This document shows, in pieces, positions 5,686 through 6,429 of a stretch of DNA of 11,981 nucleotides (the stretch's first letter is position 1; each line of letters starts with the position of its first letter). A program made the position numbers and the translations under genes. The stretch lies in the IMG/VR virus record IMGVR_UViG_2606217102_000003, positions 1-11,981 of that record; one strand, given 5' to 3'. Source of the stretch: a virus (lineage: Duplodnaviria; Heunggongvirae; Uroviricota; Caudoviricetes). The notes under the pieces were generated by a model. The model worked only from the letters and a program-made list of their open reading frames with translations. It searched no databases and was not told the origin of the DNA.

Positions 5686-5725
5686 AAAAGATCCCGACAC
5701 AAACATGAGCTGGGATCTTTGATTT
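5686..5725. terminator. Hairpin terminator, probably bidirectional, between the rightward accessory operon and the antisense parDE pair
   Basis: aaagatccc (16-nt loop) gggatcttt; 9-bp stem flanked by an A-run on the plus side (T6 on the minus strand) and a T-rich tail. A second hairpin tccgcc...ggcgga at about 5741-5764 is followed by tttatt. Confidence 0.5.
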
Positions 5726-5800
5726 ATATAGCCTACGAATCCGCCAGTAAGAGAGGGGGCGGACGGTTTATTCTAACACCGGAATGATGTGGGTAAAAGT

Positions 5801-6100
5801 TTATAAGAAATCGGTTTCATAACTTTGCCCACCATGATAGATACCGACAATAAAGACTTTTCTGCCATCAACGGCAAAAGCAATAATCGTTCTGTGGCGG
5901 AAATGAGTTACCCGCATCCCCTGGCGAATATCATCGCGTTTATTGCCCCGATGCGGGAATGTAGAAAACCCATCAAGATAATCAAGAAGCGCATTGGCAT
6001 AATTGTCAGCAATGACGCTTCCTGCTTTCTCCGTTATGTATCTGTGCAGGTTGATTATCTGCTGTTCGGCCTCAGGAGTAATGATGACTTCATATGTCAT
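5801..6100 (-). CDS. parE: ParE/RelE-superfamily toxin (99 aa)
   Basis: MTYEVIITPEAEQQI...IIAFAVDGRKVFIVGIYHGGQSYETDF fits ParE-family toxins. Start placed at the internal ATG (rc of 6098-6100), 5 nt downstream of the antitoxin stop. The track ORF extends further upstream and would overlap the antitoxin. Confidence 0.75.
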   Translation of the reverse strand: MTYEVIITPEAEQQIINLHRYITEKAGSVIADNYANALLDYLDGFSTFPHRGNKRDDIRQGMRVTHFRHRTIIAFAVDGRKVFIVGIYHGGQSYETDFL

Positions 6101-6105
6101 GCAGA

Positions 6106-6363
6106 TTACTTCCCGGATCGAATCGCAGCGCGAACCTGTGAAATGGAGCGTCCGTTGTTCGGGTTTTTGCGGATTGAATCCAGGGAGGGGGCGGCTGAAT
6201 GCGTTAACCACGCTTCGATTGCTTTATCGCGCTCATTCAGTGCGCGAAGCCCTTCACGAATGACCTCGCTTTCTGAAGCATAGGCACCGGAAGCCACACG
6301 GGCGCGCACCATGTCAGCCATCTCGTTAGTTAATGTAATGCTGAATTGTTGGGTTGTACGCAT
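6106..6363 (-). CDS. parD: ParD-family (ribbon-helix-helix) antitoxin (85 aa)
   Basis: FSITLTNEMADMVRARVASGAYASESEVIREGLRALNERDKAIEAW matches the ParD/COG3609 pattern. GAGG RBS upstream of ATG (rc of 6361-6363). Antitoxin-then-toxin order. Confidence 0.7.
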   Translation of the reverse strand: MRTTQQFSITLTNEMADMVRARVASGAYASESEVIREGLRALNERDKAIEAWLTHSAAPSLDSIRKNPNNGRSISQVRAAIRSGK

Positions 6364-6398
6364 GGTAAACCTCAAGGAGTAGGATAGAACACTATTCG

Positions 6399-6429
6399 AT
6401 GATAGCACGTTGCCTGTTGACGACAACAG
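6399..6429 (-). promoter_or_regulatory. Candidate parDE promoter with operator palindrome
   Basis: Minus strand: -35 TTGTCG (rc of 6421-6426), 16-bp spacer, -10 TATCAT (rc of 6399-6404). Perfect inverted repeat CTGTTG-ACGA-CAACAG at 6414-6429 overlaps the -35. Confidence 0.45.

Follow-up and report, generated by a model that had tools for sequence, protein, structure and literature searches.

A predicted ParD/ParE toxin-antitoxin cassette lying antisense among the early genes of an Escherichia coli lambdoid prophage

ParDE modules on mobile elements are textbook knowledge, their archetype being the operon of plasmid RK2/RP4, a two-gene autoregulated addiction module in which ParE poisons gyrase and ParD, a ribbon-helix-helix protein, serves as both repressor and antidote. 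Lambdoid phages are known to carry morons, as described by Hendrix and colleagues, i.e. extra transcription units with their own promoter and terminator that lie between backbone genes and are variably present. On the cryptic prophage CP-933P of E. coli O157:H7, the PaaR2-PaaA2-ParE2 system (5CW7, 5CZF) has three components (PMC8630535). Here we analyse a minus-strand gene pair within an 11,981-nucleotide (nt) stretch of Caudoviricetes DNA (IMG/VR record IMGVR_UViG_2606217102_000003, positions 1 to 11,981; hereafter the window), which we interpret, with a probability of roughly 0.85, as a self-contained ParD/ParE cassette of the type II toxin-antitoxin class, present as cargo in a lambdoid (Rac/Qin-like) prophage of E. 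coli. The pair, already annotated by RefSeq and PHROGs, is an ordinary example of a familiar class and of little importance in its own right; a conserved operator motif and a toxin-antitoxin slot are modest by-products. The elements of the cassette, in window positions and with protein lengths in amino acids (aa), are as follows.

5678 to 6448: cassette-specific DNA, 771 bp, delimited by pairwise comparison with related prophages
6106 to 6363, minus strand: parD, 85 aa, start at 6363 and stop codon ending at 6106, with GAGG 6 nt before the ATG
5801 to 6100, minus strand: parE, 99 aa, start at 6100 and end at 5801
6399 to 6426, minus strand: predicted parDE promoter, TTGTCG (6426-6421), 16 nt, TATCAT (6404-6399), with TG at 6407-6406
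6394 to 6380, minus strand: best operator candidate, TAGTGTTCTATCCTA, an imperfect palindrome between the -10 and the ribosome-binding site
6414 to 6429: -35 palindrome, CTGTTG-ACGA-CAACAG, an exact inverted repeat
6417 to 6446, plus strand: outward promoter-like site inside the cassette, TTGACG, 18 nt, AATATT (6441-6446), 9/12 consensus positions by scan
5684 to 5720, minus strand: predicted intrinsic terminator of parDE, hairpin AAAGAUCCC...GGGAUCUUU (5720-5687) followed by UUU

The parD-parE pair and its variable presence

The antitoxin scores above the curated cut-offs of both Pfam PF03693 (32 bits, cut-off 21) and TIGR02606 (54.1 bits, cut-off 46.2), falls in PHROG 6494 'antitoxin' (E = 8.8e-56) and is named ParD family antitoxin by RefSeq (WP_001297790.1), and its family profile retrieves ParD antitoxins only among solved structures (3KXE, 7YCV, 7B22, 8C24 and 5CEG). 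At the sequence level, a profile of 25 homologues aligns residues ~5-50 with the ribbon-helix-helix part of the solved ParDs, which points to residues ~1-45 as the N-terminal ribbon-helix-helix DNA-binding part; the variable C-terminal part would bind the toxin. Word-based searches returned 2657 matches for ParD and just 35 for ParE, and across phyla ParD hardly varies in its N-terminal half (MRTTQQFSITL...SESEVIREGLRAL), the C-terminal half being divergent, as is ParE. By analogy with other ribbon-helix-helix proteins, TQQFS[IV]TL, near-invariant across phyla, would constitute the DNA-reading strand.

A related antitoxin gene stands in other company in the Stx2a (Shiga toxin 2a) prophage of E. 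coli O157:H7 ECP17-46 (locus L005 1800-2777; also phage records H28-H30). Its ParD is 85% identical to that of the window, with the differences concentrated in the C-terminal half, and is preceded by the same promoter and operator; the next gene encodes a 90-aa protein of phrog_9924 with no Pfam match and no similarity to ParE, after which comes a HigA-like helix-turn-helix antitoxin. This parD could be an orphan antitoxin or part of a hybrid three-gene module.

The second protein of the pair matches Pfam PF05016 with 41.5 bits (cut-off 23) over profile positions 1-89 of 89, falls in PHROG 5232 'toxin' (E = 3.9e-43) and is named RelE/ParE family toxin by RefSeq; PHROG places both proteins in the category 'moron, auxiliary metabolic gene and host takeover'. 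Its family profile finds only ParE toxins in the PDB, and when its AlphaFold2 model (predicted local distance difference test, pLDDT, 87.8) was compared with the PDB by Foldseek, the best 23 matches (E <= 0.001, template modelling (TM) scores 0.72-0.83) were all ParE-type: Mesorhizobium opportunistum ParE3, PfiT, PrpT, Mycobacterium tuberculosis ParE1/ParE2, Vibrio cholerae ParE2, Pseudomonas aeruginosa ParE, Caulobacter ParE1 and O157 ParE2. Family models, PDB profile matches and Foldseek ranking thus place the predicted toxin in the ParE clade, closer to ParE toxins than to RelE-type RNases, and gyrase would be its target, judging from the known biology of that clade. A preliminary description of this DNA had read an antisense ParD/ParE pair here, and this is borne out by the Pfam, TIGR02606, PHROG and PDB-profile matches, with PF03693, TIGR02606 and PF05016 all above cut-off, as well as by the ParE model.

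Both genes are full length relative to their homologues and are separated by 5 nt from parD stop to parE start. Among the 80 parD loci from diverse genomes that we used for counting gene order and operators, 77 carry a ParE homologue directly downstream of parD on the same strand. Longer versions of the two genes, a 106-aa antitoxin open reading frame (ORF) from TTG 6426 and a 136-aa toxin ORF from GTG 6211, were rejected on the grounds that the homologues all start at the internal ATG, and a 152-aa plus-strand ORF (5825-6283) was set aside as an antisense artefact. Codon differences between the window and the copy in the Stx2a phage ArgO145 comprise 12 synonymous and 3 non-synonymous changes, a pattern consistent with purifying selection on parDE.

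As to the limits of the cassette, the alignment between the window and hokD-carrying prophages breaks off after 5677 and resumes at 6449, and the ArgO145 copy ends at 6446, thus setting the left boundary at 5677/5678 and the right one at 6446-6449. The slot so defined, immediately upstream of a conserved 90-aa ORF, a DUF968 gene (ydfU) and the antiterminator block, is occupied by hokD in related prophages, by mokC/hok plus another ORF in Sakai Sp11 and by relB-relE-hokD-rem in K-12 Qin; given that these and parDE sit in the same position, toxin-antitoxin modules of unrelated kinds (ParDE, RelBE, Hok) gather there. In ArgO145 the block 5593-6446 is 96% identical to that of the window and has an early-left location, flanked by an HNH-endonuclease block and an antirepressor and antisense to its neighbours, whereas strain 2014C-3057 joins the ArgO145 left flank to the window right flank, a third flank combination. 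Among E. coli phages, Shiga-toxin phages included, the same cassette has therefore changed place between early-left and early-right positions. The full block 5593-6446 is present in 324 of 5426 complete E. coli genomes, the exact 1.7-kb arrangement of the window in just 7 and some part of the flanks in 4632; a single full match among 72,556 plasmid records makes the cassette essentially chromosomal and prophage-borne. Comparison with prophages lacking the insert thus gives boundaries of 5678-6448 and presents parDE as a swappable cargo cassette rather than conserved backbone, the evidence for its mobility being comparative only.

Mode of action, control signals and competing readings

How the pair would work, from a toxic ParE directed at gyrase and an unstable ParD to autoregulation at 6380-6394 and a biological role, we infer solely from what is established for ParDE systems. 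In the lysogen, parD and parE would be co-transcribed leftward from their own promoter, with transcription ending at the hairpin 5720-5684. ParD would dimerise through its N-terminal ribbon-helix-helix domain and, alone or with ParE, repress the operon at TAGTGTTCTATCCTA over the transcription start, and its C-terminal part would wrap and neutralise ParE. Should ParD not be replenished, free ParE would poison DNA gyrase and lead to cell arrest or death; released on loss of the prophage, it would penalise that loss. If ParE truly damages DNA, this could matter for prophage stability or induction.

Several toxin-antitoxin systems abort phage infection, and it is possible, if unlikely, that the pair serves mainly in anti-phage defence by abortive infection instead of stabilising the prophage. 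Its being prophage cargo in a slot that gathers toxin-antitoxin modules speaks for such a role; however, PADLOC models match neither protein, and no sequence feature separates defence from stabilisation. This proposal concerns the role and not the molecular mechanism, and is compatible with the addiction-type mechanism described above.

Turning to the control signals, the predicted parDE promoter matches 9/12 consensus positions plus the TG in a consensus scan. Three promoter-like sites of this grade were seen in the region against 1.8 expected, and the site count alone proves nothing. Its extended -10 (TGnTAnnnT) is conserved in 6 of 7 aligned enterobacterial sequences (window, ArgO145, Cronobacter, Erwinia, Yersinia, Enterobacter and Izhakiella), with a distance from TTGTCG to the extended -10 of 16 nt in E. 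coli and 19-20 nt in the other genera. A promoter-like site is thus present where the preliminary description had put the -35/-10 of the pair, and the hairpin with T-run that it reported at the 3' end is found at 5720-5684.

The upstream regions of the 80 parD loci share a palindrome, (A)GTAGGATTNAATCCTAC(T). A match to TAGGATTNAATCCTA of at least 11/14 occurs in 79 of them, always 30-50 nt before the start codon, a level reached by 1% of shuffled controls. Its recurrent variant is GATAGTGTT(C/T)AATCCTAC, the form of the window copy TAGTGTTCTATCCTA, which lies 31 nt before the parD ATG, just downstream of the -10 and over the expected transcription start; in the seven enterobacterial sequences the form TAGTGTT-N-AATCCTA is nearly invariant. 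In many distant loci the palindrome, as read by eye from the upstream sequences, overlaps a plausible -10 (TAGGAT or TTAAAT), which a TTGACG-like or TTGAAG hexamer precedes by 16-18 nt. Since ParD hardly varies in its DNA-reading region and the palindrome at the core promoter hardly varies either, 6380-6394 is the best ParD operator candidate, better than the palindrome at the -35, and TAGGATTNAATCCTA can be proposed as a 15-bp palindromic operator candidate common to this ParD subfamily across many bacterial phyla. A search of the accessible literature for the operator string returned nothing relevant.

The palindrome at the -35 had itself been put forward as the autoregulation site. It is exact at 6414-6429, it overlaps the predicted -35, its core TGTTGTCGTCAACA is kept in E. 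coli variants, and ribbon-helix-helix antitoxins often bind more than one site, all of which would suit an operator, either sole or second. Nevertheless, inverted repeats as good as this one number 48 in the 12-kb window (0.4 per 100 nt), and a repeat of that grade appears in 11% of shuffled versions of the 83-nt promoter region. Its arms, complementary at 6/6 positions in the window, decay to 5/6 in ArgO145, Cronobacter and Izhakiella, 4/6 in Enterobacter and 3/6 in Erwinia and Yersinia, with no compensating change among these six relatives, and the palindrome is missing from all 80 distant loci despite identical DNA-reading residues in their ParDs. The part that is invariant, GTCGTCAA, can just as well be read, on the opposite strand, as the TTGACG hexamer at the -35 of a divergent promoter. 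The exact repeat thus stands as described, but being no rarer than chance, decaying in relatives and lying apart from the family motif, it is a doubtful autoregulation site. Given that the invariant core reads as a divergent -35 and that the arms decay, the palindrome is probably the overlap of two back-to-back -35 regions rather than an operator.

The site on the opposite strand (6417-6446) faces the 90-aa ORF and the DUF968 gene and would be a divergent promoter: TTGACG is invariant in the seven genera, and a TATATT-like -10 follows at 18 nt in 5-6 of the 7. In other genera this outward site faces antirepressor genes. The prophages of ArgO145, Cronobacter, Erwinia and Yersinia all have parD divergent from antirepressor-type genes (ORF6N, AntA, Ash), with an intergenic leader of 200-370 nt that contains conserved hairpins such as CAGCCGATTTTGCGGCTG; this antirepressor flank upstream of parD is not present in the window. 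A ribbon-helix-helix gene divergent from an antirepressor recalls mnt/arc-ant of phage P22, in which Mnt and Arc control ant. No second ParD-type site was found near the divergent promoter or the antirepressor leader in five phage contexts, which makes control of the outward promoter by ParD less likely.

In every phage context examined (window, ArgO145, Cronobacter, Erwinia and Yersinia) parDE is antisense to the genes on both sides, and it might be speculated that this placement is functional. Antiterminated early transcription after induction could collide with and silence parDE, so that the supply of ParD would stop and ParE be released at a fixed point of the lytic cycle; DNA damage driven by ParE could in turn act on the repressor of the prophage, a LexA-family protein according to RefSeq; or the outward promoter, facing antirepressor genes in the four other phages, could tie the toxin-antitoxin state to induction. 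We regard a functional placement of any of these kinds as improbable.

At the other end of the operon, the terminator hairpin has a folding energy of -15.5 kcal/mol (z = -3.4) as minus-strand RNA and of -13.1 kcal/mol (z = -3.9) as plus-strand RNA; it is potentially bidirectional and may also stop plus-strand transcripts leaving the 27-aa ORF to its left. It lies within DNA found only with the cassette, and in ArgO145 an A-to-G change lengthens the stem to 12 bp (-18.5 kcal/mol). A simple terminator scan missed the hairpin (5720-5687) because of its long loop; a site that it called instead inside parE (5879-5860) was taken as chance. Between the parE stop and the terminator (5722-5800, minus strand) there is, in addition, a promoter-like TTTACC, 16 nt, TAGAAT with TG (5797-5770), after which come a CCGCC...GGCGG hairpin, a stretch rich in A and U and the terminator, a layout which resembles a small-RNA gene and would give an RNA of ~80 nt. 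The parE 3' regions of other genera are unrelated, with the terminator directly after the stop codon, and Rfam at a permissive threshold gave no RNA family within 5600-6500.

Several points weigh against a working ParDE cassette acquired as cargo. Its GC content (0.44-0.51 inside, 0.48-0.55 in the flanks) changes without a clear step, and the GC and skew profile reveals no compositional island at the cassette. Of the independently acquired cargo cassette of the preliminary description, the cargo part is therefore upheld, by presence and absence among relatives, alternative cargo in the slot and the second site in ArgO145, while no compositional sign of foreign origin accompanies it. The parDE promoter prediction is just a 9/12 consensus match, and the operator copy of the window is degenerate, with 11/14 matches, 4/7 self-complementary positions and a T where 0/79 other sites have T. 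NCBIfam models gave no match for the toxin at E <= 0.01, and the searchable literature, Stx and ArgO145 papers included, holds no paper on this pair. Finally, the ParE family includes weak toxins and toxins with no action on gyrase, so that a gyrase target is not readable from the fold.

The toxin could, on the other hand, be a RelE-type ribosome-dependent mRNA endonuclease rather than a gyrase poison of ParE type. The RefSeq name leaves this open, PF05016 spans both the RelE and the ParE groups with their one shared fold, and RelE, YoeB and YafQ do turn up in the Foldseek list. They stand lower in it, however, with TM ~0.5-0.6 against 0.72-0.83 for the 23 leading matches; the profile search of solved structures gives ParE toxins alone, BLASTP of the window toxin against K-12 RelE detects no similarity, and the partner antitoxin is of ParD type. 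An RNase is accordingly a very unlikely identity for this protein. It is just as improbable that the cassette is an inactive remnant persisting by hitch-hiking only, as suggested by decayed relatives (Yersinia, with parD followed by two short ORFs, and the O157 Stx2a phages, with parD and no parE), since the window has both ORFs full length, mostly synonymous changes (12 against 3), conserved regulatory elements and the full block shared with 324 complete genomes.

Flanking genes and prophage context

The window spans the immunity genes and the early-right genes of an E. coli prophage of lambdoid, Rac/Qin-like type, and is 99.9% identical to a prophage of E. coli strain 700481. In the latter (locus L001), RefSeq records a frameshift in a Cro/CI-family regulator gene (4318-4561) and a truncation of a DUF551 gene (7557-7994), and this prophage may be partly decayed. 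The genes of the window around the pair are the following.

Left part of the window, in order: LexA-family repressor, Cro-like gene, YdaT, then replisome organiser
Next, up to the parDE pair: accessory genes of DUF977, DUF4406, Ea22, DUF551 and eaa types
5593 to 5676, plus strand: 27-aa hydrophobic ORF, MSWPEAFTTVGTAMAVALVVYSICRWG, at the left junction and outside the toxin-antitoxin pair
6499 to 6771, plus strand: 90-aa ORF, right neighbour of the cassette
Right of parDE, in order: the 90-aa ORF, DUF968 (ydfU-like), RusA, DUF1133 protein
Further right: DNA methylase, two tRNAs, TerB, lysis genes

All neighbours on both sides are on the plus strand and parDE is on the minus strand. The ATG of the 27-aa ORF overlaps the upstream stop as ATGA. 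This ORF accompanies the cassette in ArgO145, and the 85-nt stretch that contains it also occurs in ~1000 E. coli genomes without parDE, behind varying upstream genes (DUF551, eaa or hypothetical). The ORF has no Pfam or PHROG match; it could encode a small membrane peptide or be a conserved junction at which modules recombine.

To the right, the two tRNA genes that follow the DNA methylase (within 10427-11277, plus strand) have anticodons CAT (tRNA-Ile according to RefSeq) and TCT (tRNA-Arg), and a TerB-family gene and a DUF3927 gene lie next to them; the tRNA pair and TerB region occupy the position of the toxin genes in Stx phages. Directly downstream of the DUF1133 gene (8194-8748), positions 8782-8855 (plus strand) weakly match IsrK, a small RNA that binds Hfq; at 21.6 bits (E = 0.4) the match stays below the gathering score of 50.

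Comparison with described systems

The best profile and structure matches of both proteins are ParDE3 of M. opportunistum (5CEG, 6X0A) and ParDE1 of Caulobacter crescentus (3KXE), which share with the window pair the parD-then-parE order and a ribbon-helix-helix antitoxin with a C-terminal toxin-binding tail. The window toxin is ~19-24% identical to their toxins. These systems are chromosomal in alphaproteobacteria, whereas the window pair is phage cargo, and the N-terminus of its ParD, MRTTQQFSITL, marks a separate subfamily that has a conserved operator candidate of its own. As for the archetype, the RK2/RP4 module is plasmid-borne and the window cassette is almost never found on plasmids; RK2/RP4 ParDE is not among the solved-structure matches of either window protein.

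The system of CP-933P is similar in placing a ParE-fold toxin on an E. coli lambdoid prophage with YdaS/YdaT-type immunity genes, and its ParE2 reaches a Foldseek TM of ~0.79 against the window toxin with no sequence match to it at E <= 1. It divides the antitoxin functions, however, between the small non-DNA-binding antitoxin PaaA2 and the separate regulator PaaR2, whereas in the window one classical ParD would do both jobs. The relBE-hokD genes of K-12 Qin (relBEF) and the hokD or mokC/hok genes of Rac/Qin-like prophages and Sakai Sp11 are likewise toxin-antitoxin cargo, in the very same slot, but their toxins come from other families (the RelE RNase, and the Hok membrane peptide with its RNA antitoxin) and they run with the phage genes, parDE being antisense. 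Lastly, parDE resembles the morons of lambdoid phages in its predicted promoter and terminator, its presence or absence among relatives and its sharp boundaries, and differs from them in showing no compositional contrast with the flanks.

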